DNA of 54,258 nt from Gammaproteobacteria bacterium. Lineage in GTDB: Bacteria; Pseudomonadota; Gammaproteobacteria; HK1. The translations under genes were made by a program, and so were the position numbers. Below the pieces are notes generated by a model, which was not told the origin of the DNA, did no database searches, and worked only from the letters and a program-made list of their open reading frames with translations. Shown here one piece after another: positions 10,812-46,594 of the stretch; the stretch's first letter is position 1, and each line of letters starts with the position of its first letter. Where the stretch lies: NCBI GenBank assembly GCA_022823045.1, contig JAJDXW010000282.1, positions 1 through 54,258 on the forward strand. Direction: 5' to 3'.

Positions 10812-10938
10812 CGCCGCCGGCCGCGATGACGCCCCGGCCCGAATCTTGTCCCGGGCGTCGTCCGGCCGGAACAAGCGTGGGTGGACATCCGGGCCGGCTA
10901 CCCCCGCGGACGGTTTCGAGAACGAAGAGCGACGACAG

Positions 10939-19765: not shown

Positions 19766-20806
19766 TCAGGAGCGCCCGCTGCGTGCGCGTCGGAGCAGTC
19801 CGGACAGACCCCCCGTGCTCGGATCCTGCAGGGCCGCGTAGAAGGCGACAGAAGTGATGATGATGAGGCCCGCCGCGACCTGCTGCCAGAAAAAGTCCAG
19901 CCGCAGCATTACCAGCGCGTTGACCACCATGGACAGCAGCAGCACGCCGACCAGCGTGCCCGTCATGGATCCGCGGCCGCCGAACAGCGACGTGCCGCCG
20001 ACCACGACGGCGGCGATCGTGTGAAGGGTCAGCCCCATCCCGGCGGTCGCCTGGATCGCGTTGAGGCGGCCGGTGAGCAGAATGCCGGCAAGTCCGGCAA
20101 GGCCGCCGAGCAGCATGTACTGGTAGACCTTGTGCCGGTGGACATCGATGCCGGTGAGGAACGCGGCTTCGGTGTTGCCGCCGATCGCCACCGCGTAGCG
20201 GCCGAGGGGCGTGTACCGGTAGAGAACGTAGCCGGCCGCGATCGCGACGACCCCGATCACCGCGGCGACCGGCAGAAGGTCGAGGATGCGTCCCCGTCCG
20301 ATCCAGGTCAGCGGTTCGGGAAACCTCGCGAGCACCATGCCGGCGGCAAGGACGAGCGCCAAGCCGCGAAAGACGAGATCGGTCGACAGGGTCGCGATGA
20401 GATCGGGCACCCGCAGCTTGGTGACGACGAAGCCATTCACCGAACCGCAGGCGATGCCCACCAGGAGGGCGACCGCCATGCCGGCGAAGACGTTGACTCC
20501 GGCATCCTTGATCAGCATGGCCATGATCACCGCGGAGAGCGCCGCGATCGAGCCGACCGAGAGGTCGATTCCGCGGCCGGTGATCACCAGGGTCATGCCC
20601 ATGGCGAGAACCATGAAGATGGACGCATCCTGCAGGATGATCATCAGGTTCTGCCAACGGAAGAAGCGCAGATCGGCAAAGGCCATGATCAGGCAAAGCG
20701 CCATGATCATGACCAGCGGACCCAGTATGTTGACGGAACGCTCTGCCCAAGGAATCTCGCGCCGTCGAGACCCTGCCGCTGGCGAGCCTTCCGGAATGCT
20801 CGCCAT
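19766..20806 (-). CDS. ABC transporter permease (ribose/xylose type)
   Basis: Multi-TM protein with VITGRGIDLSVGSI and GGTSLFGGRGSM motifs typical of RbsC-like permeases. Start is the ATG at 20806 inside ORF 19766..20851. Confidence 0.85.
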   Translation of the reverse strand: MASIPEGSPAAGSRRREIPWAERSVNILGPLVMIMALCLIMAFADLRFFRWQNLMIILQDASIFMVLAMGMTLVITGRGIDLSVGSIAALSAVIMAMLIKDAGVNVFAGMAVALLVGIACGSVNGFVVTKLRVPDLIATLSTDLVFRGLALVLAAGMVLARFPEPLTWIGRGRILDLLPVAAVIGVVAIAAGYVLYRYTPLGRYAVAIGGNTEAAFLTGIDVHRHKVYQYMLLGGLAGLAGILLTGRLNAIQATAGMGLTLHTIAAVVVGGTSLFGGRGSMTGTLVGVLLLSMVVNALVMLRLDFFWQQVAAGLIIITSVAFYAALQDPSTGGLSGLLRRARSGRS

Positions 20807-20990
20807 TCGGCACCTGCATTGCGGAGCACAATCGACGGCGGATGCTCCCACCGCCCGCTTCGCGAGTCAAGGCACGGACGATGGGGTCCCGGTTACACGG
20901 GAACCGTCCGGTCGATACCATGTCACGCGGAAACGGACCGCCGCCAACTGGCTCGATACCCCTCGACCCGCCACCTTGCCGGAGACCTCG

Positions 20991-21812
20991 ATGACCGGAC
21001 ATCCGTTCGCCATGGTGCCCCTTCCCGCGGAGCGGAGCGGCTCGAAGCCGCGCACCAAGGGCCTCACGATGATGAAGGACGCGGGACTGCCGCGCGCTCA
21101 CCTGCGGGGCCTCCTCGACCTGATTGCGCCCTTCGTTGACTACGCGAAGTTCGTCACCGGTACCGCGCGGATCCATCCCGAGGACCATCTGCTCGAGAAG
21201 CTCGCGATCTACCGCGAGTTCGACGTTCACACGTTCATCGGCGGCCAGTTCCTCGAGTACGTCTTCGCGACCCGGGGCTTCGCCGGGGTTCGGCCCTACT
21301 GCGAGGAGGCCCGCCGGCTCGGGTTCGAGGCCATCGAGGTCTCCGACAACCGCGTTCCCCTGACCGACGAGGAACGGACCCGGCTCATCTCGACGGCGGT
21401 CGACTGCGGGCTCGAGGTCCACGGCGAGGTCGGCTCCAAGGACGTTCACACCACCGCCGCGACCCTCATCCGCCAGGCGGAGGACTGCTTCGCGGCCGGC
21501 TCGAAGCTGGTCCTCGTCGAGGGAGCGGAGCTCATCGTCGACGACGCCCTCAACGCCCCGCTCCTCGAAGAGCTGAAGGCGGGACTCGACGTCGCGAAGG
21601 TGATGTTCGAGCTGAGCGGCCCGTGGATCCCGGGAACGACCCTCGCGGAGGTCTACCAGCTCCGGAACTTCCTCATCGACGCGTTCGGCCCCGACGTCAA
21701 CATCGCCAACGTCCAGCCGGAGGACGTCTTCGAGACGGAGGTGCTCCGCGTCGGCCTCGGGAGCGCCGGCCCTCCCGCCGGCGTCGGGCAGGCAGGCCCG
21801 AGACCCGAGTGA
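20991..21812 (+). CDS. Phosphosulfolactate synthase (ComA) family protein
   Basis: 273 aa. SKPRTKGLTMM.D.GL, DYAKF..GTA and FEAIEVSD match the ComA family as I recall it. Start is the ATG at 20991 inside ORF 20286..21812. Confidence 0.65.
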   Translation: MTGHPFAMVPLPAERSGSKPRTKGLTMMKDAGLPRAHLRGLLDLIAPFVDYAKFVTGTARIHPEDHLLEKLAIYREFDVHTFIGGQFLEYVFATRGFAGVRPYCEEARRLGFEAIEVSDNRVPLTDEERTRLISTAVDCGLEVHGEVGSKDVHTTAATLIRQAEDCFAAGSKLVLVEGAELIVDDALNAPLLEELKAGLDVAKVMFELSGPWIPGTTLAEVYQLRNFLIDAFGPDVNIANVQPEDVFETEVLRVGLGSAGPPAGVGQAGPRPE

Positions 21813-21910: not shown

Positions 21911-24166
21911 TCAGGACAGGAGGTAGATGGGGCTCGGCCAGGCCTGGTGGCCGTTCTCGAGGGTGACGCAGGCGTAGAGGCGGGTGTCCGCGCCCCGACG
22001 GAGCTTGACGCGGCGGCTCAAGGTCATCGAGCGGGTGGCGTTCTCGTCCGGCAGCCGGAAGACGCGGACCGCCTTGTGGAGGCCGCCCGCGTCGACCCGC
22101 GTGTCGGCGAGGCCGATGCCGGCGAGCTCGAGGTCGGCGTCGACCTCGCTCGTGCGAAGCCGGAGGACCCCGCGCTCCGCTTCGTCTAACCACACGTCGA
22201 TGGCGGAGAACCCACCCGTCGTGACGCAGCGCCACGCGACCTCGTCCTCTCCGACCTGCCGGGGAAGCTGCTCGACGTTCCAGAAGTTGACGGGCGCGAT
22301 GCGCTCGATCCTCGCCCCCTCGAACGTCGCGATTCCCTCCCAGGCGACGTTCCGGCCCCGGCCCCGATAGTGGGCGCCCTCGCAGACGATGCGGATGCGC
22401 CGGCCGAGGTCGGACTCCCCGTAGGGCCGCACCGTCTCGATGGTGTCGAGCCCGTCGCGAAGCTCGATCCGCTCGATGGGCGCGGGTGCGGTGACGTCGA
22501 GCCGGAAGGTCACCTCGTCGTCGTCGCCGGTCCGGACGATGTCTCCCATGATCGCGCGGCGGCACGTCTCCTCCCCGACATCGCCGAGGTCCGGGTTGCG
22601 GTGATGGAGCACGCCGGGGGAGTCGAGCTCGACCGAGGCGGCGAGATGGAGGCGGGCGCCGGTCGTCGCGTAGTGGTGGCGGCGGCGGAAGGCCTCGACG
22701 AGGCAGTCCCGGTCGAGGGATTCGAGAAGGTGACAGGTGAGCCCCCCGTAGGAGCCGAACTCGGCGACCCCGGGGTACTTGGCGCCGGGTCGACCGTCGT
22801 GCCCGTCGCTCGAGGCGACGATGCCGACCCGGTAGTCCGCCTCGAACGCGTCGCGGACGATCCACTCGAAGGTCCCCCACGCGGAGTGGATCTCGACCGA
22901 GGGCTCGATCCTCGCGTCGTGGGCGTACTTGACGTCCGCGTAGCGCCCGCCGATGTGCGCGGTGACGAGCGCGTCCTCGTGCCGGAGCGCGGCGAGGAGG
23001 TCCTTCGCGCTGTGGCAGTCGGTCTCCGGGTGGGCGGTGTCGTAGACGAGGGCCCGGCACGACCGGTAGATGGGCCGCCCCTCGTGCCGGTACCAGACGT
23101 TGTGGTCGCCGCCGAGGGAGGTGTTGCCGGACCACTCGTAGCCGGGGAGGGTCACGAAGCGGCCGGGCTCGTTGAACTCGGCGGTGAGCTCGTTGAGCTC
23201 GCGCCAGAACGCGTCCGTTATCTGGAAGTCGTTCCCCTGGTGGCCGCAGATGTCGAGGAACGCCCGGTCGCGGGCGAACGCGAAGTAGTCTCGGGCAGGG
23301 TTGGTGCCGACGGTCTCCTCGCTCTGTCCGTGGAGGTCGCTCCAGTAGTGGCGGTACGGGGTGTCGGCCTCGACGCGGAGGGGGTTCGACTCCGCGAGGA
23401 GGGCGCCGTCCTCGCCGAGGACCCGGACGCGGCGCTCCGCCACATCGGCGGCGGCGACCGAGAGGCCGTCCACCTCCCGGCCGAACTCCCCCGCCCGGAA
23501 CGCAACGGTCTCGGGCAGGCCGTCGATCGGCCCGTCGGCGGCGAGGCGGACCGTCCCCTCCACCCGGTCGCTCGGGTTGCCCCACCGGTCCTCGCACTTG
23601 AGGCAGAGCCGGAAGCGGTCCCCCGTCCGCCGGAGGGTCGGGAGGATCGCGACCCACTTCACCCCCGGCCCCGGCCCGATGCCGATGGTGGGCTGGGCTT
23701 CGTCCGGCAACGGGATGTACTCGTAGCTCGCGAAGGGATCGGCGAGCACGCGAAACTCGAAGCGCGGCTGGACGAAGGTCTGGAGCCGGAGCCCCGGCGA
23801 GCCCCCCCGCCGGTCACCGAAGCGGATGACGACCCGGTCTCCCTCGGAGAGGTACCGGTCGCAGCGAACGTAGAGCGAGATCCCCCACGGGCGCGTGTTG
23901 CGGCGGTGCTCGCAGCGCACCGTGAGAGGGATCCCGGTCGAGGTTTCGACCGTGGTGTACCCGGGGCCCGCGGGGTCGTCGCACTGGATCATCGACTGGT
24001 CGGTCTGCATCCGGAACGCGACCTTGAGGCTCCCCCGGTCGTCGATGCCGAACTTCCCGCAGGTGTAGGTGAGGGTGAAGCTCTGCCAGCTCCCGGCCTC
24101 GAAGCGGCCGACGGGCTCGATGGCCGCCGACCCCATGAGGTCGGGGCGGTAGTCGTGATGCGGCAT
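21911..24166 (-). CDS. Large DUF3604-like (PHP-superfamily metallohydrolase-like) protein
   Basis: 751 aa. HYWSDLHGQSEETVG, LPGYEWSGNTSLGGDHNVWY, VTAHIGGRY, VEIHSAWGTFEW and ASSDGHDGRPG resemble DUF3604 metal-site blocks. An extra N-terminal region of about 270 aa is present. Confidence 0.55.
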   Translation of the reverse strand: MPHHDYRPDLMGSAAIEPVGRFEAGSWQSFTLTYTCGKFGIDDRGSLKVAFRMQTDQSMIQCDDPAGPGYTTVETSTGIPLTVRCEHRRNTRPWGISLYVRCDRYLSEGDRVVIRFGDRRGGSPGLRLQTFVQPRFEFRVLADPFASYEYIPLPDEAQPTIGIGPGPGVKWVAILPTLRRTGDRFRLCLKCEDRWGNPSDRVEGTVRLAADGPIDGLPETVAFRAGEFGREVDGLSVAAADVAERRVRVLGEDGALLAESNPLRVEADTPYRHYWSDLHGQSEETVGTNPARDYFAFARDRAFLDICGHQGNDFQITDAFWRELNELTAEFNEPGRFVTLPGYEWSGNTSLGGDHNVWYRHEGRPIYRSCRALVYDTAHPETDCHSAKDLLAALRHEDALVTAHIGGRYADVKYAHDARIEPSVEIHSAWGTFEWIVRDAFEADYRVGIVASSDGHDGRPGAKYPGVAEFGSYGGLTCHLLESLDRDCLVEAFRRRHHYATTGARLHLAASVELDSPGVLHHRNPDLGDVGEETCRRAIMGDIVRTGDDDEVTFRLDVTAPAPIERIELRDGLDTIETVRPYGESDLGRRIRIVCEGAHYRGRGRNVAWEGIATFEGARIERIAPVNFWNVEQLPRQVGEDEVAWRCVTTGGFSAIDVWLDEAERGVLRLRTSEVDADLELAGIGLADTRVDAGGLHKAVRVFRLPDENATRSMTLSRRVKLRRGADTRLYACVTLENGHQAWPSPIYLLS

Positions 24167-24262: not shown

Positions 24263-25324
24263 TCAGTACTTCCGGGCGCCGGCCTCGGAGGCGACGCGCG
24301 GCACCAGCGCCTTGACCAGATTCGTCATCTCGAGCACCCCGACGGGCGTTCCCTCGCACATCACGACGAAGGAGTGCGAGGTGTCGCCGCCGGAGCGCGT
24401 AATCGTGTCCTCGAGCGTGTCGTTGAGGTCCACCTCGCCGTGGGCGTCGGCCGGCGGTTCGCCTCCGTTCAAGGGAGTCATGATCGAGCGCACCCTGAGA
24501 ACGCGGGCACGATTGATGTCGCTGACGAAATCCTCGATGTAGGGGTCGTTCGGGTTCAGCAGGATGTACTGCGGCTCGCCCTGTTGGACGATATGGCCGT
24601 CCTTGAGGATCACCAGGCGATCCGCAAGCTTGAGCGCCTCGTCCAGGTCGTGGGTAATGAAGACGATGGTCTTGTGCAGCTCCTTCTGCAATTCCAGCAG
24701 AAGGTCCTGCATGTCGGTGCGAATCAGCGGGTCGAGAGCCGAGAACGCTTCGTCCATCAACATGATCGGCGAGTTCGAGGTCAGCGCGCGCGCAATGCCG
24801 ATACGCTGCTGCATGCCGCCGGAGAGCTGGTGGGGATAGTGGTTCTCGTAGCCGATGAGGCCGACCCTCTCGAGCCACTTCCTCGCCTCGGCCAGGTACT
24901 CCCGCTGGCTGACGCCGCGGACCTGAAGCGTCGTTCCGGCGTTCTCGGCCGCGGTGCGGTGAGGCATCAGGGCGAACTTCTGGAACACCATGGACATGAC
25001 TTCGCGGCGCAGCGAGCGCAGGCGCTCCTCGTCGTAGGCCAGCACGTCCTCGCCATCGACCTCGATCTGCCCCGAGGTCGGTTCAATCAGCCGGTTGAGG
25101 TGCCGGATGAGGGTGCTCTTGCCGGAGCCCGAAAGGCCCATGATGACCGTGATGTCGCTCTCGTGCATATCGATATCGATATCCTGCAGGCCGAGCACAT
25201 GGCCATGGCGCTCCAGCAGATCCGCCTTGCCGACGCCGGCCCGCACCTGATCGAGCGCGGCCTTCGGGTCCACCCCGAAGATCTTGTAGAGGCTCCGGAT
25301 TGCGATCTTGACCTTGCCGGACAC
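24263..25324 (-). CDS. proV: Glycine betaine/proline-type (ProU/OpuA-type) ABC transporter ATPase with C-terminal CBS-like region
   Basis: 353 aa with Walker A GLSGSGKST, signature LSGGMQQRIGIARAL, Walker B MLMDEAFSALDP and a C-terminal regulatory tail. Confidence 0.85.
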   Translation of the reverse strand: MSGKVKIAIRSLYKIFGVDPKAALDQVRAGVGKADLLERHGHVLGLQDIDIDMHESDITVIMGLSGSGKSTLIRHLNRLIEPTSGQIEVDGEDVLAYDEERLRSLRREVMSMVFQKFALMPHRTAAENAGTTLQVRGVSQREYLAEARKWLERVGLIGYENHYPHQLSGGMQQRIGIARALTSNSPIMLMDEAFSALDPLIRTDMQDLLLELQKELHKTIVFITHDLDEALKLADRLVILKDGHIVQQGEPQYILLNPNDPYIEDFVSDINRARVLRVRSIMTPLNGGEPPADAHGEVDLNDTLEDTITRSGGDTSHSFVVMCEGTPVGVLEMTNLVKALVPRVASEAGARKY

Positions 25325-25339
25325 GCCGGAACCCCCCGG

Positions 25340-26371
25340 TCAGACCTTCTGAGCGGCGTTGACGCGATCGAGCGCCGCCTTGGTCACGCGATCCAGGATG
25401 ATTGCCAGGAGCACGATGCCGAGGCCCGAGATGAGCCCGACCCCGAGCTCGAGATTCCGGATACCGCGCAGCACGAGCACGCCCAGACCCGGCGCCGACA
25501 CCAGCGACGCGATGACGACCATCGCCAGGCTCATCATGATCGTCTGGTTCACGCCGGCCATGATGTTGGGCAACGCCAGCGGAATCTGGACCCCGAACAG
25601 CTTTTGCCGGTCGGTCATGCCGAAGGAATCGGCCGCCTCGATGACGTCCCTGTCCACCAGCCGGATACCGAGATCGGTGAGCCGGATCACCGGCACGATC
25701 GCGTAGAGGATGATCGCGATTCCGTAGAGCTTCGGCTCCGTCACCGAGAACAGGAAGATCAGGGGAATCAGGTACACGAACGGCGGCAGGGTCTGGAGCA
25801 TGTCCAGCACCGGGATCGTCAGGCGCTGCATCCGGTCGCTGCGCGACATGGCAATGCCGATGGGCACGCCGAACAGGACGCAAAGGAAGGCGCAGACGAA
25901 GATGATCGCCAGGGTCTGCATGGCGAACCCGTAGTGGTCGATGAACGCCAGGAAGCCGAGGCAGGCGGTCACCAGGCCGATCAGCCGAATCGACCTCGTG
26001 GCCAGGTACACCACCACCATGAGAAGGGGAAACATGACCCACCATGGCGCGGCCTCGAAGACCAGAAGCGCGAATTCGAGTATCCAGCTCAGCGGCTGGG
26101 TAAGCGGATCGAGCACGAAGCGCAGAGCATCCTTGATCGCCAGGAACCCCTGCTCGAGGCCCTTCGTCGTGTCGCGCGACTGGGCGATCCGGCCGCACGC
26201 CTCGTTCAGTGCATCGAGCGAAGGGAACGGCAATTCCCACCACGGGGTTTCCTTGCCGGCGCCGCCCTTCGCCAGCAGGTCCGCCATCGACAGCGGCCCA
26301 TCGCCCGTCTTGCCCGCGTCGCACCAGCCGCGCAGGCCGAGCCCGTCGAACAGGAAGTCATACGTCGCCAT
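25340..26371 (-). CDS. proW: Glycine betaine/proline-type ABC transporter permease
   Basis: 343 aa multi-TM protein with the ProW-like core (LPPFVYLIPL, MTDRQKLFGVQIPLALPNIMAGVNQ). Confidence 0.85.
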   Translation of the reverse strand: MATYDFLFDGLGLRGWCDAGKTGDGPLSMADLLAKGGAGKETPWWELPFPSLDALNEACGRIAQSRDTTKGLEQGFLAIKDALRFVLDPLTQPLSWILEFALLVFEAAPWWVMFPLLMVVVYLATRSIRLIGLVTACLGFLAFIDHYGFAMQTLAIIFVCAFLCVLFGVPIGIAMSRSDRMQRLTIPVLDMLQTLPPFVYLIPLIFLFSVTEPKLYGIAIILYAIVPVIRLTDLGIRLVDRDVIEAADSFGMTDRQKLFGVQIPLALPNIMAGVNQTIMMSLAMVVIASLVSAPGLGVLVLRGIRNLELGVGLISGLGIVLLAIILDRVTKAALDRVNAAQKV

Positions 26372-26513
26372 GACCGGTCACCTCCTGCCAGCGGCCCGGG
26401 ACGAGGCACTCCCCGTCCCGGGTCGCGCGCGTTGCAGGTCGGTCAACGCATTGTCGCCGGCAGCGTTCCGACAGCGTTCGAATCGCGTCCCGACGGCGCG
26501 ACGGTGCGACGGC

Positions 26514-27494
26514 TCACTGGATGAAGTTCGAGAGCTTCGCGCGCGCGTCGTCGTTGATCCACTGCGACCAGATATCGGACTGCGAGGTCAGGAAGTAGAC
26601 GGCCGCCTCCTCCGCCGAGGCGCTGTTCTCCTCCTGCCAGGCGAGGATGCCGCTCAGGAGGCCGACCTCGAAGCTGACGTTGCCCATCAGCTCGACGATC
26701 TCGGGCTCGCGCTCGGTCAGCGCGGCGGTCGCGACCGTCAGGACGGGCGCCGGCGGGAAATCGGACACCCCCGGGCTCGGGTTGTCCTTGTTCTGGTTGG
26801 CCGAATGGACGTCGTTGTCGATGTCGCCGAGCGCAACCTTGACCATCTCGTACTTGCCCAGCACCGCGGTGGGACCCCAGTAGTAGCCGAACCAGGGCTC
26901 CTTGTTCTCGTAAGCGGCAGCGATCGAGGTCGCAAGCGTTTCCCCGGACCCGTGGTCGAACACCTCAATGCCCGCCTCCTCGACACCGAGCGCCTTGATC
27001 AGGTTGTCGTTGACGATCCGGCAGCCCCAACCGTCCGGGCAGTTGTTGAAACGCCCCCCGACCACGTCGGGATTGGCCAGAATCCCCTCGATGGTGGCAA
27101 GCTCCGGATGCGCTTCGGCGAGATAGGCCGGGACCCACCAGCCTTCCACGCCGCCCGGCGCGATGACGTCGGCGAGCCGGGAAACCTTGCCCTCGGCTTC
27201 GAGCTTGGCGTAGACGGCGCCGGTCGAGTTCAGCCACAGCTCGGTCACGAGATCGGGCTCACCGTTCTCGGCCAGGGACGCGACGGAGGTGGTGGTCGCG
27301 GACGGCACCTTCTCGATCGTGCAACCGTATCCTTGCTCCATCAGGAACTTGGAGACCTCCGTGATGATCTGGGACGACGCCCAGTTCATCTCGGTGATGG
27401 ACACCTCCCCGCACTCCGCGGAGGCCGTTCCCGGAACGGCGAGACTGGCGCTTGCTGCGAAACCGACCAGGGCGGCGGCTAGGGCTTTCTTCAT
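26514..27494 (-). CDS. Glycine betaine/choline-type ABC transporter substrate-binding protein
   Basis: It has the signal peptide MKKALAAALVGFAASASLAVPGTASA, then ITEMNWASSQ and WVPAYL. SD AGGAGCAGGA is upstream. Start is the ATG at 27494 inside ORF 26514..27605. Confidence 0.8.
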   Translation of the reverse strand: MKKALAAALVGFAASASLAVPGTASAECGEVSITEMNWASSQIITEVSKFLMEQGYGCTIEKVPSATTTSVASLAENGEPDLVTELWLNSTGAVYAKLEAEGKVSRLADVIAPGGVEGWWVPAYLAEAHPELATIEGILANPDVVGGRFNNCPDGWGCRIVNDNLIKALGVEEAGIEVFDHGSGETLATSIAAAYENKEPWFGYYWGPTAVLGKYEMVKVALGDIDNDVHSANQNKDNPSPGVSDFPPAPVLTVATAALTEREPEIVELMGNVSFEVGLLSGILAWQEENSASAEEAAVYFLTSQSDIWSQWINDDARAKLSNFIQ

Positions 27495-27783: not shown

Positions 27784-28413
27784 TCAGGCGGCGAGGACGC
27801 CCGACATCGGGATGAACCCTGGGATGCGCTTGACGCGGTCCGTCCAGCGGCGGATCGCGGGGTAGGGCATGCGCGAGACCCCGCCTTCCTCGGAGAGCGC
27901 GACGTAGGGGAAGCAGGCGATGTCGGCGATGGTTGGATGGTCCGGTCCGCAGAGCCAGTCCCGGCCCTCCTGTTCCTGGAACCAGAGGTGCTCGTCCAGC
28001 ACCCGGAAGAGCGTGTGCGCCCCGGCGCGTGCCCGGTCCGCGTCCAGCTCGAAGAAGATCCCGTCGTGGAGCCGCGCGGCGGAGGCGGTCGCGGTGATGC
28101 CGTCGGCGAAGGCGAGCCACATCGCGATCTCGCCGAGGGTCCTCGCGTCGCCGGTCGGATACCACTCGCCGCTCCCGTCGTGCTTCGCGGCGAGGTAGAC
28201 GAGGATCGCCTGCGCGTCGCGGAGCGTGACGTCCCCGTCCTCGATCACCGGCACCTGGCCGAGGGGGTTGTGCCTAAGGAACCACTCGCTCTTGTGATCA
28301 CGCCGGGGGTGGAAGTCGATCCAGCGCGTTTCCCACTCGAGACCGAGGAGGCTCAGGAACAGCCGGATCTTGTAGCAGTTTCCGGAGAGCACGTAGTCGT
28401 AGAGGCGGATCAC
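27784..28413 (-). CDS. Glutathione S-transferase
   Basis: 209 aa. The N-terminal thioredoxin-like part is MIRLYDYVLSGNCYKIRLFLSLLGL...NPLGQVPVIEDGD. The C-terminal part is helical. Confidence 0.85.
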   Translation of the reverse strand: MIRLYDYVLSGNCYKIRLFLSLLGLEWETRWIDFHPRRDHKSEWFLRHNPLGQVPVIEDGDVTLRDAQAILVYLAAKHDGSGEWYPTGDARTLGEIAMWLAFADGITATASAARLHDGIFFELDADRARAGAHTLFRVLDEHLWFQEQEGRDWLCGPDHPTIADIACFPYVALSEEGGVSRMPYPAIRRWTDRVKRIPGFIPMSGVLAA

Positions 28414-28465
28414 GGCGATGCTTCCGCGCAGCGGTTCCCGGAAGGCCCGTGGTCGCGGAGACGGC

Positions 28466-29200
28466 TCATGATGAAGCGCTCGTCTCGATCGCGTCCCTCA
28501 CCGTGCGGAGACGGTCGTTCTCGCGGCGAAGGACCGCGATCCGTTCGGCCGCGGGCGGCGCCTTTGCAAGTGAGGCGTGGATGAACGTCTCGCCATCGGC
28601 GACCGGCTGAAGGGCGTACCGGATCTCGGCCCCCTCGGTGTGGGCGCTTCGCAGCAGGTAGGGATCGACGGCCTCGGGCGCGGACCCGTCGGACGCCTCT
28701 CCGGCATGGCGGGCGAGGGCGTGCGCGACCGCCGCGGCCGGAGCAAATACGTGGATGCTGCGAAGCGTGAGGCCCGCCGGCGTCGAGCCCGGCTCGAAGC
28801 CCGGGCCCGGATCGCCATCACCTTCCCCGGCGAGCCGGACCCAGACGTAGCCGTCGACCTCGACGCACGGGAACCGCTGCGCCCGGACGAGGGACGGGGG
28901 CTCTTCGCCCGGATGGGCCGGCCGCTCGACGCACTGCCCGGAGCCCGACGCGTACGTCCAGCCGTGATAGCGGCACTTGAGCCGGTCGCCGAGGTTGGTC
29001 CCGACGGAGAGCCGCACGCCGCGGTGCGGGCAGCGGTTCTCCCAGGCGTTGACGGTGTCGTCGTCCGCGCGCCACACCGCGAGCTCCTGGCCGAGGAGGG
29101 CGGTGTGGACGATGTGGCGGGGGGCGGCCTCCTCCCCGCGGCACACCGGGAACCAGCGACGCTCGGGACTCACCTCCGGCACGTCCGATATCTCCGGCAT
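28466..29200 (-). CDS. Stand-alone Rieske [2Fe-2S] protein with a degenerate C-terminal domain
   Basis: 244 aa with intact ligands CPHRGVRL...CRYHGWTY. The remaining roughly 135 aa lack the D/E-x3-D-x2-H-x4-H mononuclear-iron motif. Confidence 0.8.
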   Translation of the reverse strand: MPEISDVPEVSPERRWFPVCRGEEAAPRHIVHTALLGQELAVWRADDDTVNAWENRCPHRGVRLSVGTNLGDRLKCRYHGWTYASGSGQCVERPAHPGEEPPSLVRAQRFPCVEVDGYVWVRLAGEGDGDPGPGFEPGSTPAGLTLRSIHVFAPAAAVAHALARHAGEASDGSAPEAVDPYLLRSAHTEGAEIRYALQPVADGETFIHASLAKAPPAAERIAVLRRENDRLRTVRDAIETSASS

Positions 29201-29216
29201 CCTGCGACTGTGGTCC

Positions 29217-29245
29217 GCCCCCGCCCCCGCCCCCGCCCCCGCCCG
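29217..29245. repeat. (GCCCCC)x4 hexanucleotide tandem repeat plus partial unit, intercistronic
   Basis: Read directly: G at 29217, 29223, 29229, 29235 and 29241, each followed by C5 (the last by C3). It lies between the stop at 29253 and the ATG at 29200 of two minus-strand genes. The mRNA sense is (GGGGGC)n. Confidence 0.9.
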
Positions 29246-29252
29246 CGTCCGC

Positions 29253-30119
29253 TCAGGCCGCGGCCTGGGCCGGGATCGCGCCGTAGGTCACGCCCTGCGC
29301 GGCGAGCCACCGGCGGTACGCGAGCGAGGACGCATCGGAGCGCGCCGGGATCTCCGCCCGGGGGTCGAGGGGCAGGCGCTTCGGAAGCTGGTTCTCGAGG
29401 ATCGGCTTGTCCTGGCCGAAGATGAGCTGCTGGAACCAGCGCAGGGCCTCCGCGTCGATTTCGTGGGGGAGGTAGGCTAGGTAGGGATGGGCGACGCATC
29501 GCTCTTCGTCCACCGGCTGCACGAGGAGCGCGATGAAATCCCAGCGCTCGGGCTCGATCGGGTTGCTCTTGTAGAGGCACACCGTATAGGGACGGCAGAC
29601 CTTGTACTCGTAGTCGACCATCATGCCCCCATCGGCGCCCGGTGAGGAGAGGGGCTGAAAGAAGCGGCACTGCGTCGCGAGGATCTCGTTCTCCTCGGTC
29701 ACCGTGACCTCGTAGGGCTCCACTTCCGTGTACGGCTCGACGCCGAGGTAGTCGGTGTGGACGAACGGGAAGTGCCCAAGGTCGAGGAAGTTTTCGACGG
29801 CCCGGAGCCCCGAGACGTGGACCGCGAGGGAGCCGCCGGTCACGCAGATCCGATCCGCCTCGAAGCACTCGGGGAAGTGGACGATGTCCCGGTCCGGCTC
29901 GCCGAGCGATGCGAAGGCGTGACCGTACTTGATGCGCGCGGCAAGCGGGGCGCCCGTATCGCGCCGGACGACGCGAACCTCGCCGGAACCTGTGCCCGAC
30001 TCGGAGATCTCGATCGGGACGCCCAGCAGCACCGTCTCGAACGAGCCCCGCGTCGAGAGGAACTCGAGCTCGACGACGGCGTGCCAGTCGTTTACCAGGA
30101 CCGGATCGGGCTCGACCAT
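29253..30119 (-). CDS. VanA/PaO-type oxygenase catalytic subunit whose N-terminal Rieske site is degenerate
   Basis: 288 aa. The mononuclear-iron motif ENFLDLGHFPFVH is intact. The N-terminal roughly 75 aa still look Rieske-fold-like (NDWHAV..., GAPL) but the CxH/CxxH ligands are gone (RRDTGAPLAARIKYGHAF). SD AGGGAG precedes the ATG at 30119. Confidence 0.75.
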   Translation of the reverse strand: MVEPDPVLVNDWHAVVELEFLSTRGSFETVLLGVPIEISESGTGSGEVRVVRRDTGAPLAARIKYGHAFASLGEPDRDIVHFPECFEADRICVTGGSLAVHVSGLRAVENFLDLGHFPFVHTDYLGVEPYTEVEPYEVTVTEENEILATQCRFFQPLSSPGADGGMMVDYEYKVCRPYTVCLYKSNPIEPERWDFIALLVQPVDEERCVAHPYLAYLPHEIDAEALRWFQQLIFGQDKPILENQLPKRLPLDPRAEIPARSDASSLAYRRWLAAQGVTYGAIPAQAAA

Positions 30120-30515
30120 CTCACACTCCCTGACGTCCTCCGCGCGCCCTTGGGACGGCCGGGCGGCGCAGCGTGCTCCGCCCCGATACCGCGAAGCAGC
30201 GTTCCGCCCGGACGGGGCGCTCGGGCCTCCAGCGGAACCGCGGTGGTTACCGCCCCGCCGCCAACCCGCGCGCCGCCCGGACCACCACAACGATGACGTG
30301 GCGCGGCTCGCCGATGCTAACAAATCCGAAGGAGATTCCGCGGGGAGATCGTGGATACTACGCAGCACGGGCGCCAGTCGCCGGGCAGGCTCGGACCCCG
30401 TTCGGTTCGAAGCGGACGACCCGCTCCGCGCACACGGAAAAACCGGCCGGAAGTCGCCGCCCGGGAGCACCAGGCCGCGCGCCAGCTCACAGTTCGATCA
30501 CGGGGAGACCAACCC

Positions 30516-31619
30516 ATGGCAAGAAGAATCTCGCGCCGCGAGGCGCTCAAGTACTCGGCCGCGACCGGGGCGATGGCGACGGGCCTTGCCGGCCTTCCGC
30601 GCCTCGCCGCCGCCGCCGACCCGCTCAAGGTCGGGATCGTCTACGTCTCGCCGATCTCCGAGATCGGCTGGACCAAGCAGCACAGCCTCGGGGCCGAGGC
30701 CATCGCCGACACCTTCGGCGAGCGGGTGAGCATCACCGCGATCGACAACGTCTGGGACCCGCAGGCGGGCGAGCGCGTGTTCGCCGAGCTCGCGAGCACC
30801 GGCCACGGCCTCGTCTTCGGGACCAGCTTCTCCCACAGCACCCCGATCCAGAAGACCGCCCCCCGATTCCCCGACGTCGCGTTCGAGCACTGCTCGGGGC
30901 TCAAGCACTTCGACAACCTCGGCACCTTCGAGGCGAAGTACTACGAGGGGACCTACCTCGCGGGGATCGCGGGCGGGCACGTGACGGAGTCGAAGAAGCT
31001 CGGGTTCATCGGCGGCTTCCCGATCCCGGACATCGTGGGCCCGGGGAACGCGATGCTGCTCGGCGCGCAGAGCGTCGACCCCTCGATCACCTGCAGCGTC
31101 ATCTTCCTCAACTCCTGGTTCGACCCCGCGAAGGAAAAGGAGGCGACGGCCGCCCTCGTCGCCCAGGGGTGCGACGTCATCTGCTCCATGACCGACACCG
31201 CGACCGGGGTGCAGGTGGCCGAGCAGGGCGGGGCGTGGTCGATCGGCTACGCGAGCGACATGCGCCAGTTCGGCCCCACGAAGAACCTCACCTCCTTCAT
31301 GCTCGACTGGAGCAGCGTCTACGTCGGCGCGGCACGCGACGTGCTGGACGGAACCTGGACCTCCCAGGTCCGGTGGCAGGGGGTGAAGGAGGGCGTGGTG
31401 ACGATGTCGCCCTGGAATGACCAGCTTCCGGGGGACGTCATCGACCAGTTGACGGCGACCGAAGCCGCGATCAAGGACGGGTCGCTGCATCCGTACAAGG
31501 GCGAGCTCCGGGACCAGCAGGGCAACGTCCGGGTCGAGGCGGGGAGCCGGCTCTCCGATCCCGACATCCGGGGCTTCAACTGGTTCGTCGAAGGGATGAT
31601 CGGCAACCTCGAGGGCTGA
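30516..31619 (+). CDS. BMP family (PnrA/Med-like) ABC transporter substrate-binding protein with Tat-type signal
   Basis: MARRISRREALKYSAATGAMATGLAGLPRLAAA is followed by KVGIVYVSPISEIGWT. SD GGGGAG is upstream. Start is the ATG at 30516 inside ORF 30351..31619. Confidence 0.85.
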   Translation: MARRISRREALKYSAATGAMATGLAGLPRLAAAADPLKVGIVYVSPISEIGWTKQHSLGAEAIADTFGERVSITAIDNVWDPQAGERVFAELASTGHGLVFGTSFSHSTPIQKTAPRFPDVAFEHCSGLKHFDNLGTFEAKYYEGTYLAGIAGGHVTESKKLGFIGGFPIPDIVGPGNAMLLGAQSVDPSITCSVIFLNSWFDPAKEKEATAALVAQGCDVICSMTDTATGVQVAEQGGAWSIGYASDMRQFGPTKNLTSFMLDWSSVYVGAARDVLDGTWTSQVRWQGVKEGVVTMSPWNDQLPGDVIDQLTATEAAIKDGSLHPYKGELRDQQGNVRVEAGSRLSDPDIRGFNWFVEGMIGNLEG

Positions 31620-31786: not shown

Positions 31787-33358
31787 ATGACGCCGCGCCT
31801 CGAGCTTCGCGGGATCACCAAGACGTTCCCCGGGGTGCTCGCGAACGACGACGTCTCGCTCACCGTGATGCCGGGCGAGATCCACGCCGTCCTCGGCGAG
31901 AACGGCGCGGGCAAGAGCACCCTGATGAAGATCATCTACGGGGCGCTCGCGGCGGACGAGGGCGAGATCCTCTGGAACGGGGAGCCGGTCCGCATCCCGA
32001 GCCCGACCGCCGCCCGTCATCTCGGCATCGGCATGGTCTACCAGCACTTCTCGCTGTTCGAGACGGTCTCGGTCGCCGAGAACATCGCCGTCGCGGTGGA
32101 CGAGCCCTTCGACCTACCCGCGATCTCGGCGCGCGTCCGCGAGCTCTCCGAGCGATACGGGATGCCGCTCGACCCCGATCGGCTGCTCCACCACCTGTCC
32201 GTCGGAGAGCGGCAACGGGTCGAGATCGTGCGCTGCCTCCTCCAGCGCCCGACCCTCCTCGTCCTCGACGAGCCGACCTCGGTGCTCACCCCTCAGGCGG
32301 CGCGGAGCCTGTTCGAGACCCTGCGGGTCATCGCGCAGGAAGGGTGCAGCCTGCTCTACATCAGCCACAAGCTCGAGGAGATCCGCGATCTCTGCGACAC
32401 CGCGACGATCCTCCGGGCGGGCGCGGTCGCCGGCACCGCCGATCCGAAGACCACGTCGCCCGCGGAGCTCGCGGCGCTGATGGTGGGCTCGGCGCTCCCC
32501 GAGACCCACCGCGACCCGGCCCGGCCCGACCCGACGCCCCGCCTCGAGGTGCGGGGCCTCGTCGCCGAGGCCGAGGACCCGTTCGGCACCGACCTCGGGG
32601 ACGTCTCGCTCGCGGTCCACGCGGGCGAGATCGTCGGCATCGCGGGCGTTTCCGGCAACGGGCAGGGGGAGCTCGCGGCCCTGCTGAGCGGCGAGCGCAC
32701 CTTGGCCGAGGGCGATGCGATTCGCCTCGACGGCGAGCCCATCGCCCGCCTCGACGCGGGCGCAAGGCGGCGGCGCGGGCTCGCCTTCGTCCCCGAAGAC
32801 CGCCTGGGGCGCGGCGTGGTGCCGCTCATGTCGCTCCGCGAGAACGTCATCCTCACCGCCCACGCCCGCGCCGGCATGGTGCGCGGCGGCATGGTCCGGC
32901 GCGATCGCGCGGACGCCTACGCCCGCCGGGTGATCGATCGCTTCGACGTGCGGTGCACGGGGACCGGCGCGATCGCCCGCGCCCTGTCCGGCGGGAACAT
33001 CCAGAAGTTCATCGTGGGACGCGAGATGGAGCTCGCGCCACGGGTCCTCGTCGTCTCCCAGCCGACGTGGGGACTCGACGTCGCGGCGGCCGCCTTCATC
33101 CGCCAGAGCCTCATCGACTTGAGCCGCGAGGGGGCCGCGGTCCTCGTGATCTCCGAGGAGCTCGACGAGCTCCTCGAGATCTGCGACCGCATCGCGGTGC
33201 TCTACCGGGGCCGCCTCTCCGAAGGCCGGAATCGCGGCGAAGTGAGCGTCGAGGACCTCGGCCTCCTGATGGCGGGCGGCGCCACCGAGTCGGGCGCGGC
33301 GGGCGTGGCGGACGCGGCGAGCACCGCCGCCCCGAGCCCGGAATACCCGGAACCCTAG
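31787..33358 (+). CDS. ABC transporter ATP-binding protein with two NBDs (CUT2 / nucleoside type)
   Basis: 523 aa with Walker A GENGAGKST, LSVGERQRVEI and LVLDEPT, plus a second degenerate NBD with LSGGNIQK. Confidence 0.9.
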   Translation: MTPRLELRGITKTFPGVLANDDVSLTVMPGEIHAVLGENGAGKSTLMKIIYGALAADEGEILWNGEPVRIPSPTAARHLGIGMVYQHFSLFETVSVAENIAVAVDEPFDLPAISARVRELSERYGMPLDPDRLLHHLSVGERQRVEIVRCLLQRPTLLVLDEPTSVLTPQAARSLFETLRVIAQEGCSLLYISHKLEEIRDLCDTATILRAGAVAGTADPKTTSPAELAALMVGSALPETHRDPARPDPTPRLEVRGLVAEAEDPFGTDLGDVSLAVHAGEIVGIAGVSGNGQGELAALLSGERTLAEGDAIRLDGEPIARLDAGARRRRGLAFVPEDRLGRGVVPLMSLRENVILTAHARAGMVRGGMVRRDRADAYARRVIDRFDVRCTGTGAIARALSGGNIQKFIVGREMELAPRVLVVSQPTWGLDVAAAAFIRQSLIDLSREGAAVLVISEELDELLEICDRIAVLYRGRLSEGRNRGEVSVEDLGLLMAGGATESGAAGVADAASTAAPSPEYPEP

Positions 33359-33361
33359 GAC

Positions 33362-34516
33362 GTGCGCCTTCAGTTCGAGCCGCGGCCCACGCCCTCGCTC
33401 GCGGCCCAGGTGCTCGCCCCCGTCGCCGCGTTCGCGCTCACCGTGGTCTTCGGGTCGATCTTCTTCCTCATCCTCGATCTCGACCCCTTCGAGACCCTTC
33501 ACGTCTTCCTCATCCGGCCCCTGAGCTCGGCCAACGGCGTCTCCGAGTGGCTGCTCAAGGCGTCGCCGCTCATCCTCATCGGCCTCGGACTCGCGGTCGG
33601 CTTCCGGGCCAACGTGTGGAACATCGGCGCCGAAGGGATGTTCATCTGCGGCGCGATCTCGGCCGGCTGGTTCGCGCTCGCCTTCGGAGACGGCGACCAC
33701 GTGTGGCTGCTGCCCCTCATGGCCCTCGCGGGCATCGCGGGCGGCATGGCCTGGGCGAGCGTCCCCGCCTTCCTCAAGGTGCGCTTCAGCACCAACGAGA
33801 TCCTCGTCACCCTGATGCTGAACTACGTCGCGGTCCTGCTCCTCGGCTACCTCGTGCGGGGGCCGTGGCGCGATCCCCTCGGCTTCAACTTCCCGCAGAC
33901 CGCCCTCTTCGGCCCGTCCGCGCTCTTCGACCCGCTGGTCGGCGTGTACCGGGTCAACACCTCGATCTTCATCACCCTCGTCGCGGTCGGCATCGCCTGG
34001 CTCTTCGTCCAGCACACGTTCACGAGCTACCGCATGACGGTGGGGGGCGCGGCGCCGGCGGCGGCCCGGTTCGCGGGATTCCGGGACTCGCACTCGGTCT
34101 GGATCGGCCTTCTCGCCGGGGGCGGTTGCGCGGGCCTCGCGGGGATGATGGAGGTGGCGGGGCCGCTCGGCCAGCTCACCGGCCACATCTCGCCCGGTTA
34201 CGGGTTCGCGGCGATTATCGTCGCGTTCATCGGGCGCCTGCACCCGTTCGGGATCGTGCTCGGGGGGCTCCTCCTCTCGCTCCTCTACATGGGGGGCGAG
34301 TCGGCCCAGATCATGCTGAGGCTCCCCGCCGCGCTCACCCGAACGTTCCAGGGGGCGCTCCTGTTCTTCCTGCTCGCGGCCGACTTCCTCATCTACTACC
34401 GGCCGCGCCGGGTCGGGCGGGCGGGGCCGAGGCGAGGCCGGGGCGAGGCGGAGGCCGGGACCGGGGTCGGGGCCGAGACCGGGGCCAAGGCCGAGACGGC
34501 GGCGGGGCAAGGCTGA
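33362..34516 (+). CDS. ABC transporter permease with a 38-aa low-complexity C-terminal tail
   Basis: GTG start 4 nt after the ATPase stop. Multi-TM core. The tail is RPRRVGRAGPRRGRGEAEAGTGVGAETGAKAETAAGQG (nt 34400-34513). Confidence 0.85.
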   Translation: MRLQFEPRPTPSLAAQVLAPVAAFALTVVFGSIFFLILDLDPFETLHVFLIRPLSSANGVSEWLLKASPLILIGLGLAVGFRANVWNIGAEGMFICGAISAGWFALAFGDGDHVWLLPLMALAGIAGGMAWASVPAFLKVRFSTNEILVTLMLNYVAVLLLGYLVRGPWRDPLGFNFPQTALFGPSALFDPLVGVYRVNTSIFITLVAVGIAWLFVQHTFTSYRMTVGGAAPAAARFAGFRDSHSVWIGLLAGGGCAGLAGMMEVAGPLGQLTGHISPGYGFAAIIVAFIGRLHPFGIVLGGLLLSLLYMGGESAQIMLRLPAALTRTFQGALLFFLLAADFLIYYRPRRVGRAGPRRGRGEAEAGTGVGAETGAKAETAAGQG

Positions 34517-34517
34517 G

Positions 34518-35438
34518 ATGGAAATCGCGATCGCGATCATCACCGGCACCGTCGTCGCGGCGACGCCCCTCCTCTTCGCCGCGATGGGGGAGCTCGTCGC
34601 GGAGCGCTCGGGGGTGCTCAACCTCGGGGTCGAGGGGATGATGCTGATCGGCGCCGTTACCGCCTTTCACTTCGCGTTCGCGGGGTACCCGCTCCCGGTC
34701 GCGGCGGGCGCCGGGGTGCTCGCGGGGGCCGCCTCGTCACTGGTCTTCGGGGTGCTCGCGCTCAACCTCCTCGCGAACCAGTACGCGGCCGGGATCGCGC
34801 TCACGATCCTCGGGGGCGGGCTCTCCGCCTTCCTCGGCCGGGAATTCGGGGCCGCCCCCATCGAACCCGTCGAAGCGGTCCACATTCCGGTGCTCTCCGA
34901 CATCCCTGTCCTCGGCCGCATCCTCTTCGACTACGACCCCCTCGTCTACGTCGCCTTCATCCTCTTCGGGCTCATCTGGTGGATGCTCTTCCGTACCAGG
35001 ACGGGCCTCGTCCTCCGGATCATCGGGGAGAACCCGCAGGCGGCCCACGACATCGGGTTCAAGGTCATTCCCATCCGGTACCTCGCGGTCCTCTTCGGGG
35101 GCGCGATGGCGGGGCTCGGCGGCGCCTATCTCGCCATCGCCTACACCCCCCTCTGGGTCGAGAACATGACCGCCGGCCGGGGCTGGATCGCGCTCGCCCT
35201 CGTCGTCTTCGCGAGCTGGCGGCCGCTCCGGGTGCTCCTCGGGGCGCTCCTCTTCGGGGGGGTCAACATCCTTCAGCTTCACGCGCAGGGGCAGGGCATC
35301 GGCCCCGCGTCGGAGTTCCTCTCCGCCCTGCCCTATGTCGCGACGATCCTCGTCCTCGTCCTCATCTCGCGGAACCGCCAGACCCAGAAGGTGAACTTTC
35401 CCGCCTCGCTCGCGAAGCCCTTCCGCCCGGGGCACTGA
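34518..35438 (+). CDS. ABC transporter permease (second membrane subunit)
   Basis: 306 aa multi-TM protein. The ATG lies 2 nt after the preceding stop. Confidence 0.85.
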   Translation: MEIAIAIITGTVVAATPLLFAAMGELVAERSGVLNLGVEGMMLIGAVTAFHFAFAGYPLPVAAGAGVLAGAASSLVFGVLALNLLANQYAAGIALTILGGGLSAFLGREFGAAPIEPVEAVHIPVLSDIPVLGRILFDYDPLVYVAFILFGLIWWMLFRTRTGLVLRIIGENPQAAHDIGFKVIPIRYLAVLFGGAMAGLGGAYLAIAYTPLWVENMTAGRGWIALALVVFASWRPLRVLLGALLFGGVNILQLHAQGQGIGPASEFLSALPYVATILVLVLISRNRQTQKVNFPASLAKPFRPGH

Positions 35439-42291: not shown

Positions 42292-42320
42292 TTGACAAGT
42301 GACATAGTGCGTATTACGGT
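42292..42320 (+). promoter_or_regulatory. Candidate sigma-70 promoter TTGACA-N17-TACGGT that would give a leaderless higB mRNA
   Basis: A perfect -35 lies at 42292-42297 and a -10 with TAnnnT at 42315-42320. The ATG at 42326 follows 5 nt later and no SD is present. Confidence 0.3.
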
Positions 42321-42325
42321 CCACC

Positions 42326-42604
42326 ATGATTCGGAGCTTCAGAAGCAGGGCGCTCAGGCGGTTCATGGAACGCGGCGACGAACGGCGCATCCATCCCGAG
42401 CACCGTGAGACCGTGCGCGACATCCTGGCCCGTCTGAACGCCTCCGCCGCCCCGAACGACATGGACGTGCCCGGCTTCCGGCTCCACCGGTTGAGGGGGG
42501 ACCAATCCGGCTTCTGGGCGGTCACCGTCCGCGCCAACTGGCGCGTGATCTTCCGATTCGAAGACGACCATGCCGTCGACGTCGACTACCTCGATTACCA
42601 CTAG
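42326..42604 (+). CDS. higB: HigB-type toxin (RelE/ParE superfamily, plasmid maintenance system killer)
   Basis: 92 aa: MIRSFRSRALRRFMERGDERRIHPEH...GFRLHRLRGDQSGFWAVTVRANWRVIFRFEDDHAVDVDYLDYH is the classic HigB pattern. Confidence 0.85.
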   Translation: MIRSFRSRALRRFMERGDERRIHPEHRETVRDILARLNASAAPNDMDVPGFRLHRLRGDQSGFWAVTVRANWRVIFRFEDDHAVDVDYLDYH

Positions 42605-46590: not shown

Positions 46591-46594
46591 CGCG

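Follow-up and report, generated by a model that had tools for sequence, protein, structure and literature searches.

Three consecutive minus-strand genes on contig JAJDXW010000282.1 of a Gammaproteobacteria bacterium (assembly GCA_022823045.1; all 54,258 nt were analysed and are called the window) probably encode one multi-subunit Rieske non-haem-iron monooxygenase of the NdmCDE family, which would be reduced in trans and would N-demethylate an imported methylated purine. We refer to the genes, in order of transcription, as G1 (29253-30119), G2 (28466-29200) and G3 (27784-28413). G1 has a mononuclear iron site and lacks Rieske ligands, G2 has a Rieske centre and lacks the iron site, and G3 is a glutathione S-transferase (GST)-like protein. 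In the open reading frame (ORF) list of the 54-kb window, spacers of 52 nt apiece separate them (29201-29252 between G1 and G2, 28414-28465 between G2 and G3), reproducing the coordinates and gaps given by an earlier reading of this DNA without database searches (the sequence-only reading), which had described three co-directional genes. The characterised member of the family, NdmCDE of Pseudomonas putida CBB5, is a 7-methylxanthine N7-demethylase complex (Summers et al. 2013, as presented in the review PMC4408171). In the model for NdmCDE the Rieske domain is split off, and both solubility and activity depend on the GST (PMC4408171); the proteins are reported to form a tight GST-requiring complex whose structure is still unsolved (PMC13237722).

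G1 and G2 retain complementary cofactor sites

G1 encodes a 288-aa catalytic subunit, which matches VanA_C alone in Pfam (residues 106-274, E 5e-20), has no Rieske match and is matched by no NCBIfam model. In an alignment of 30 family members, E109-N110-x2-D113-x2-H116-x4-H121 and Q236-D237 are invariant; the motifs ENFLDxGHFPFVH and QD are retained across the G1 family. H116, H121 and D237 make up the mononuclear iron site and D113 is taken to be the residue that bridges the two cofactor sites. In contrast to this intact site, no Cys or His occupies the Rieske ligand positions of G1, and no conserved Cys-His pair is found in the N-terminus across 30 relatives. A MAFFT alignment with GxtA, a full-length HpxD-like oxygenase and NdmC/NdmD-type proteins revealed that ∼50 residues spanning both Cys-His pairs are deleted in G1-type proteins, and that 'KYGHAF' of G1 aligns with the final strand of the Rieske domain ('RYGLVW' in GxtA). 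The sequence-only reading had proposed that G1 keeps the iron motif and has lost both Cys-His pairs, and both Pfam and the column alignment agree. It had also seen a degenerate CPHRGAPL...C.YHGW segment in G1; this was mistaken, as 'KYGHAF' does not correspond to C-x-YHGW and the cluster-binding part is deleted instead. This correction is small and leaves the conclusion on ligand loss unchanged. The G1 N-terminus (residues ∼1-72) is a vestigial Rieske fold without cluster ligands, followed by the VanA_C helix-grip domain. In the AlphaFold2 model (pLDDT 77) the first ∼70 residues are confidently predicted as a beta-sandwich, a remnant of the Rieske fold, and the model overlays the complete SxtT/GxtA alpha subunit in Foldseek with a TMq (TM-score normalised to the query) of 0.70-0.78.

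In one relative of G1, P0025 (315 aa, from a 75-kb metagenome contig, 72% identity), the protein past about residue 215 is a wholly divergent Arg/Pro-rich tail. This pattern is best explained as a frameshift or sequencing error and appears to be the sole sign of decay met in the family.

G2 encodes a stand-alone Rieske subunit of 244 aa, and its only Pfam match is Rieske (residues 16-97, E 1e-20). The cluster ligands C57, H59, C76 and H79 are invariant in 25 family members, and no H-x4-H or carboxylate triad is conserved in the C-terminal half of 25 relatives. In agreement with the earlier description of a perfect Rieske centre joined to a C-terminal domain without the iron motif, G2 pairs an intact [2Fe-2S] Rieske domain (∼14-126) with a miniaturised remnant of the catalytic domain (∼144-244) that lacks iron ligands. 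The AlphaFold2 model (pLDDT 84.5) shows the Rieske domain and then a small unit of the helix-grip type, in which one strand and one helix precede four strands and a long helix at the C-terminus, and G2 as a whole overlays the GxtA and SxtT alpha subunits (TMq 0.67-0.74 over 264-294 columns, Foldseek). Stand-alone Rieske-type ferredoxins such as T4moC and CarAc are single-domain electron shuttles of ∼100-115 aa. G2 does not belong to this class, being 244 aa long with a second folded domain, and its best matches are oxygenase alpha subunits (E 5e-24), with ferredoxins far weaker (E 3e-6).

In four Gammaproteobacteria metagenome-assembled genomes (MAGs; L007 at 10933-12120, L008, L009 and L029) the G2 orthologue is longer, at ∼395 aa, because a ∼150-residue Gly/Ala/Pro-rich and partly repetitive insert ('GVGGAGRTGKPD...') lies between the Rieske domain and the catalytic remnant. 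Therefore, the two parts tolerate a long flexible linker.

Since both models overlay full alpha subunits, the predicted structures support the view that G1 and G2 are cut-down alpha subunits, each retaining one of the two cofactor sites along with a vestige of the domain that bears the other. The closest solved structures of both are SxtT/GxtA, followed by NdmA/NdmB. Together with the ligand alignments, the overlays bear out the proposal of the sequence-only reading that the two paralogues have lost complementary cofactor sites. Its further argument, that the split did not arise by a simple frameshift, also holds: this origin is excluded by the reciprocal domain vestiges and by purifying selection on the conserved arrangement.

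G3 encodes a GST-like protein of 209 aa with both N- and C-terminal GST domains (Pfam GST_N and GST_C), as had been read from the sequence. It carries an N-terminal SGNCYK motif and weakly resembles the model for YfcG-type glutathione-dependent disulfide oxidoreductases (E 6.5e-10). G3 is the most conserved of the three when compared with a Hoeflea cluster (71% identity, against 62% for G1 and 39% for G2).

Relationship of the three proteins to NdmC, NdmD and NdmE

As references we used genuine P. putida NdmC (P0256, UniProt M1EY73), and NdmD and NdmE from a caffeine-type cluster (L091) that encodes two NdmA/B-type oxygenases, a GntR regulator, NdmC, a 588-aa NdmD, NdmE and proteins of the alcohol dehydrogenase (FrmA-like) and esterase (FrmB-like) families. 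G1 is 45% identical to NdmC over residues 5-282 (E 3e-81), G2 is 50% identical to residues 8-154 of NdmD, and G3 is 60% identical to NdmE over its full length. Residues 14-243 of G2 align with the first 243 residues of a 588-aa fusion protein from Hoeflea (39% identity), the remainder of which consists of FAD_binding_6, NAD_binding_1 and Fer2 domains (Pfam). This end-to-end match identifies G2 as an NdmD-type N-terminal module minus the reductase; the Rieske-reductase fusion of ∼586-588 aa that marks the NdmCDE type is not present in G2. Judged by these alignments, the resemblance to NdmCDE reflects homology and not mere analogy. The sequence-only reading of an NdmCDE-like split oxygenase with a separate Rieske protein and a GST is thus upheld by homologues at 45, 50 and 60% identity. 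The split is not peculiar to this locus: the trio belongs to a large family, the fused form of which was noted in 2013.

The trio is conserved in two architectures

Database searching gave 2865 relatives of the catalytic subunit, and genes for it are present in 563 species-level genomes. We surveyed 86 distinct loci by tblastn, 84 of which are not cut by a contig end. The catalytic gene, Rieske module and GST occur together in all 84 untruncated loci, the recurrence for which the sequence-only reading had asked as a check on its proposal. The Rieske module is fused to an FNR-type reductase (flavin, NAD and plant-type [2Fe-2S] ferredoxin domains) in 74 of them and stands alone in the other 10. 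Fused loci are found mainly in Rhizobiales (Mesorhizobium, Aminobacter, Hoeflea, Nitratireductor, Labrys, Ensifer, Rhizobium and S. meliloti pSymA), together with Pseudomonas and Klebsiella plasmids, and typically contain two Rieske-less paralogues, a GntR regulator and a divergent BMP-type ATP-binding cassette (ABC) transporter. The two paralogues are encoded in tandem (∼290 and ∼300 aa, ∼48% mutual identity) in L001 (10001-11816) and ∼70 further loci of the fused type; this pairing suggests two regiospecificities or a mixed oligomer. Loci of the window type have only the first kind of catalytic paralogue.

The ten stand-alone loci are the window, L005 (annotated as an Immundisolibacterales MAG, 85% identical), L006-L009 and L029 (annotated as Gammaproteobacteria), the metagenome contigs L002 and L003, and the more distant L087. 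Further stand-alone modules are encoded in L088, which is cut by a contig end, and in L028 and L052, where the gene order differs. In addition, the stand-alone Rieske protein is represented by at least 120 database clusters with 45-91% identity, nearly all of 200-270 aa. With 10 loci and this many protein clusters, the split arrangement is neither chance nor a one-off. L028 (553-8582) and L052 (minus strand) hold a deep-branching trio in the order stand-alone Rieske module, catalytic subunit, GST, within one operon that also includes an adenosine-deaminase-family gene and its own BMP ABC transporter, and no reductase; the same contigs also bear a fused-type cluster.

A 2013 BLAST search found clusters homologous to ndmCDE, with function unassigned, in 18 organisms, mostly Sinorhizobium and Mesorhizobium (2015 review, PMC4408171). 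Our literature searches returned no report of the free-Rieske form or of a purine-methyl Rieske demethylase. The free-Rieske, reductase-less form is a new variant of the scarcely studied NdmCDE-type split oxygenases; it is no departure from known enzyme classes.

One plasmid locus of P. putida (L085, NZ_MT074087.1, 5551-19937) combines an NdmCDE-like cluster with genes for a xylose-isomerase-like TIM-barrel protein, two 2-oxoglutarate-Fe(II) oxygenases, HpxO, OmpK and an NCS2 permease. It also bears an HpxD-like full Rieske oxygenase without a reductase of its own, and Tn7-like transposition genes adjoin; the whole looks like a mobile purine-modification island.

Purifying selection and origin of the free Rieske protein

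Compared with two relatives, the ratio of non-synonymous to synonymous substitution rates (dN/dS) was 0.25-0.28 for G1, 0.33-0.40 for G2 and 0.10-0.29 for G3. By domain, it was 0.17-0.26 for the cofactor-bearing parts (including the Rieske part of G2) and 0.35-0.6 for the vestigial parts, with the G2 remnant at ∼0.6. All values are below 1, which speaks against a decaying remnant. In a bootstrapped neighbour-joining tree, the stand-alone Rieske modules (the window group and L087) are monophyletic (bootstrap 98) and nest in a clade with 100% support that also holds the NdmD-type and the Rhizobiales fused modules; the order of these three groups is supported at just 41-47. On the tree, it is possible that the free Rieske protein arose by fission of a fused ancestor, and also possible that the split state is ancestral.

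No reductase or ferredoxin gene was detected in the window

A tblastn search of the 54-kb window with an NdmD-type reductase half gave no match at E<1, Pfam assigned no reductase or ferredoxin among the ∼46 ORFs searched, and a scan of the coding-like ORFs found no ferredoxin or FAD motif. The absence of a neighbouring reductase or ferredoxin gene, already remarked upon in the sequence-only reading, therefore extends to the entire window. Similarly, no reductase or ferredoxin was found within 10 kb of the other stand-alone loci. A motif scan located two Rieske motifs in the window, one in G2 and one in an unrelated full-length Rieske oxygenase (Rieske and Ring_hydroxyl_A domains; 51003-52154, minus strand). 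No beta subunit, ferredoxin or reductase gene lies close to this oxygenase or to a LigB-type extradiol dioxygenase gene (45769-46704, minus strand), which fits an organism whose oxygenases use electron-transfer components encoded elsewhere. Unlinked and shared reductases are common for Rieske oxygenases. As G2 is a free 244-aa protein, electrons from NAD(P)H would have to come from a reductase encoded elsewhere in the genome, and the simplest inference is an unlinked, perhaps shared, enzyme.

Transporter and neighbouring genes point to a probable purine-type substrate

Divergently from G1, the plus strand encodes a BMP-type ABC transporter. It consists of a BMP-family substrate-binding protein with a twin-arginine translocation (TAT) signal (30516-31619; Pfam Bmp, a weak match to the BMP model; probably of the purine-base-binding AtzT/3s99 subfamily), an ATPase (31787-33358; ABC_tran) and two permeases (33362-34516 and 34518-35438; BPD_transp_2). 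The oxygenase genes of Hoeflea, S. meliloti and further loci are flanked by the same transporter genes, and the BMP transporter accompanies nearly all loci. The binding protein is closely related to guanine-binding AtzT (PDB 6pi5, E 4e-86) and to adenine-bound Brucella 3s99 (E 1e-85). AtzT binds guanine with a dissociation constant of 110 nM and adenine with one of 2.5 µM, and 3s99 was deposited with adenine (PMC6834077). Like these proteins, the window protein keeps the stacking aromatics W52 and W201, as well as S104-F105 and T146, and the TAT signal is shared with AtzT. In contrast to AtzT, three polar pocket residues are changed (Glu165 to Asp, Asn218 to Met and Asn220 to Asp). The resulting pocket signature, W-S-F-T/C/S-D-P-W-M-D, was present in 76/76 cluster-linked homologues with at least 50% identity, drawn from both architectures. 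As none of the cluster-linked proteins departs from these three changes, they probably bind a purine-like base that is not plain guanine, and the common signature indicates that fused and stand-alone forms probably handle the same one.

The neighbours of related loci are in agreement with purine metabolism. L087 is accompanied by urease, a purine nucleoside permease and hydroxyisourate (HIU) hydrolase; L088 by an amidohydrolase, the xanthine dehydrogenase XdhABC and a GntR regulator; and L085 by HpxO, the NCS2 nucleobase permease and OmpK. In L028, the adenosine-deaminase-family gene is within the same operon, L049 and L081 have HIU hydrolase and Xdh, and S. meliloti has genes of the xanthine dehydrogenase family.

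A second transporter, of the OpuAC/ProX type (binding protein, permease and ATPase by Pfam; 24263-27494, minus strand), lies between the GST gene and a DUF3604 gene. The OpuAC genes are confined to the window and L002, its nearest relative, and are separated from G3 by ∼290 nt. From this restricted occurrence, they look like an insertion into the cluster and not a conserved partner. The sequence-only reading had hinted at either a methylated purine or an amine as substrate: the purine half gains from the relatives of the BMP transporter and from the purine-catabolic neighbours of related loci, and the betaine/amine half is undercut by the confinement and distance of OpuAC.

Proposed mechanism and alternatives

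We propose that G1 would bind the substrate and the catalytic Fe(II), and that G2 would supply the Rieske [2Fe-2S] cluster that G1 has lost. G2 may dock in place of the Rieske domain that a neighbouring subunit contributes in an ordinary alpha3 oxygenase, and would hand electrons singly to the G1 iron via the conserved D113; the reciprocal vestigial domains probably form the G1-G2 interface. G3 would be the third obligatory component, and the role proposed for the GST of NdmCDE is to hold the complex together. A reductase encoded elsewhere, with or without a ferredoxin, would bring NAD(P)H electrons to the G2 cluster. The BMP ABC transporter would import a purine-type base as the most likely substrate, for which G1 would activate O2. 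By homology to NdmC, the outcome would most likely be oxidative N-demethylation of a methylated purine, yielding the plain purine and formaldehyde.

Several observations weigh against this proposal. The gene for the electron donor was not found in the view available, which covers 54 kb of the window genome and ±10 kb in related genomes, and the window itself contains no recognisable purine-catabolic genes. The active-site loop of G1 (residues 116-132) has low model confidence. Profile-profile comparison of the G2 and G1 families matched the N-terminal 47 columns alone (probability 77%) and did not detect the catalytic remnant of G2, which is thus defined by the AlphaFold2/Foldseek predicted structure and the MAFFT alignment. 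Finally, among solved structures G1 is nearer in sequence to the C-hydroxylases SxtT/GxtA (E 4e-23) than to NdmA/B (E 3e-7); this, together with an identity of only 45% to NdmC, makes hydroxylation instead of demethylation possible.

Hydroxylation is the main competitor, although we regard it as unlikely. The three-protein complex and its in-trans reductase would be the same, and the reaction would be hydroxylation of the purine ring or a side chain (HpxD-like oxidation of hypoxanthine or xanthine, urate-type). The nearest solved structures are those of the C-hydroxylases SxtT and GxtA, and in the bootstrapped tree the full-length protein closest to the Rieske modules is an HpxD-like oxygenase encoded beside hpxO (bootstrap 90). 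However, NdmC is the sole characterised member of the Rieske-less clade and is an N-demethylase, and G1 shares 45% identity with it over the full length. Genes for HIU hydrolase or xanthine dehydrogenase beside some loci would suit such a reaction, but L088-like loci have genes for xanthine dehydrogenase as it is, so that a further xanthine oxidase would be redundant. Likewise, the window has no frmA or frmB past the GST gene, in contrast to the caffeine cluster, yet formaldehyde detoxification is often encoded elsewhere in the genome.

It is improbable that the three proteins work as a loose pathway without an obligate complex, in which G2 would be a diffusible Rieske ferredoxin and G3 a catalytic glutathione-dependent enzyme (for formaldehyde trapping or disulfide reduction). 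G3 does carry the SGNCYK motif, has weak YfcG-type similarity (E 6.5e-10) and is the most conserved of the trio in the Hoeflea comparison (71%, against 62% for G1 and 39% for G2). Nonetheless, G2 has 244 aa with a folded catalytic remnant and best matches alpha subunits, not Rieske ferredoxins of ∼110 aa, and most relatives have the Rieske module covalently joined to a reductase. Moreover, a tight complex that requires the GST has been reported for NdmCDE (PMC4408171, PMC13237722).

More doubtful still is a self-sufficient trio in which the GST would pass glutathione-derived reducing equivalents to the free Rieske protein, such that no flavin reductase would be needed. This idea is suggested by two observations alone, namely that three separate stand-alone lineages all lack a local reductase and that the GST is the best conserved of the subunits. 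By the same long shot, the fused NdmD form and the reductase-less form would be two ways to power the same complementary half-enzymes.

We think it very improbable that the trio is a non-functional NdmCDE-type cluster decaying after loss of its reductase. No reductase is encoded locally, the remnant domains evolve faster than the cofactor domains and the close relative P0025 has a frameshifted C-terminus. However, unlinked reductases are common for Rieske oxygenases, and the second Rieske oxygenase of the window likewise has no neighbouring reductase. The stand-alone form is monophyletic and old (45-91% identity), occurs in at least 10 loci and at least 120 protein clusters, and has all of its ligands invariant. 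In addition, dN/dS is well below 1 for each gene and each domain, reading frames are intact and the spacers are compact (52 nt).

Least credible of all is demethylation of a quaternary amine or betaine delivered by the OpuAC-type transporter: this transporter is encoded downstream on the same strand (24263-27494), and Rieske betaine demethylases exist (stachydrine demethylase and CntA, distant structural matches here), but OpuAC is confined to the window and L002 and separated from G3 by ∼290 nt, the GST gene of L005 is directly followed by DUF3604, other loci have no OpuAC, the conserved partner is the BMP transporter, and GbcA, CntA and Stc2 are distant matches only.

Other features of the locus

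The two 52-nt spacers share no common element and their sequences are unrelated, so it is by coincidence that they are equally long. Read on the mRNA strand, the spacer between G1 and G2 has a run of about five CGGGGG repeats (cgggcgggggcgggggcgggggcgggggcgg) directly 5′ of a weak ribosome-binding site of G2; this run could form a G-quadruplex or affect translational coupling. The divergent intergenic region between G1 and the BMP transporter operon (30120-30515) presumably holds the promoters, and no sigma-70 consensus was found within it. At this intergenic position fused-type loci carry the GntR regulator gene, which is absent from the window and other loci of its type.

Beyond OpuAC, the minus strand encodes a 751-aa DUF3604 protein (21911-24166) with a weak match to CehA/McbA-type metallohydrolases and no relatives among solved structures. 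In L005, its orthologue (90% identity) begins 29 nt past the GST gene; in the window and L002, the OpuAC genes intervene. The DUF3604 gene may therefore be part of the G1-G3 pathway in the window lineage. On the plus strand are genes for a 508-aa protein (20286-21812) with a ComA (phosphosulfolactate synthase) domain in its C-terminal half and no assignment for the N-terminal ∼250 residues, a HigB-like toxin (42308-42604) and a RES-domain protein (52955-53590).

Comparison with known systems

To our knowledge, NdmCDE is the sole described Rieske oxygenase that has its two cofactors on different polypeptides and needs a GST. The window resembles it in having a Rieske-less catalytic subunit, a Rieske centre on another polypeptide, an adjoining GST gene and the gene order catalytic-Rieske-GST. 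In contrast, the Rieske module of NdmD is fused to reductase domains (FMN/NADH/[2Fe-2S]), whereas G2 ends at residue 244 with no reductase near. NdmD was called the sole reported reductase with an additional Rieske cluster (2015 review, PMC4408171). The window also differs from the caffeine cluster in lacking ndmA/ndmB and frmA/frmB, which its relatives lack as well, and in having a BMP-type ABC system where the caffeine cluster has a permease. Since the window organism is not known as a caffeine degrader, its substrate is probably not 7-methylxanthine.

The ndmCDE-homologous clusters of Rhizobiales are closer. G1 is 58-64% identical to their first catalytic paralogue and G3 65-73% identical to their GST, and they have the same BMP transporter with an identical pocket signature; therefore, the substrate is probably the same. 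They differ in having a second Rieske-less catalytic paralogue, a 586-aa fusion of Rieske module and reductase, and a GntR regulator, compared with one catalytic gene, a free Rieske protein and neither reductase nor GntR in the window. NdmCDE is thus one member of a large family that is linked to a purine-type transporter and frequently to purine catabolism as well. Within it, the stand-alone variant is a simpler system to study, as expression, titration and modelling of the Rieske subunit (244 aa) need not involve the reductase, so that the assembly of the half-enzymes, the function of the GST and the identity of the reductase become directly testable. Should these clusters act on a methylated purine (7-methylguanine, for example), soil and rhizosphere bacteria would have a widespread, unrecognised route for salvaging modified bases from nucleic-acid turnover.

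Among enzymes of solved structure, the saxitoxin hydroxylases SxtT and GxtA (PDB 6wn3 and 6wnc) share the alpha-subunit fold of G1 and G2 (TMq 0.67-0.78), the VanA-type catalytic domain and the iron motif. However, both of their cofactors sit in a single chain of 334 aa, no GST is needed, and the identity is only 20-24%. The same contrast applies to canonical alpha3 oxygenases of the VanA, DdmC and SxtT type, in which both cofactors reside in one polypeptide; here they are divided over G1 and G2, and the locus clearly exemplifies complementary degeneration of cofactor sites after a duplication.

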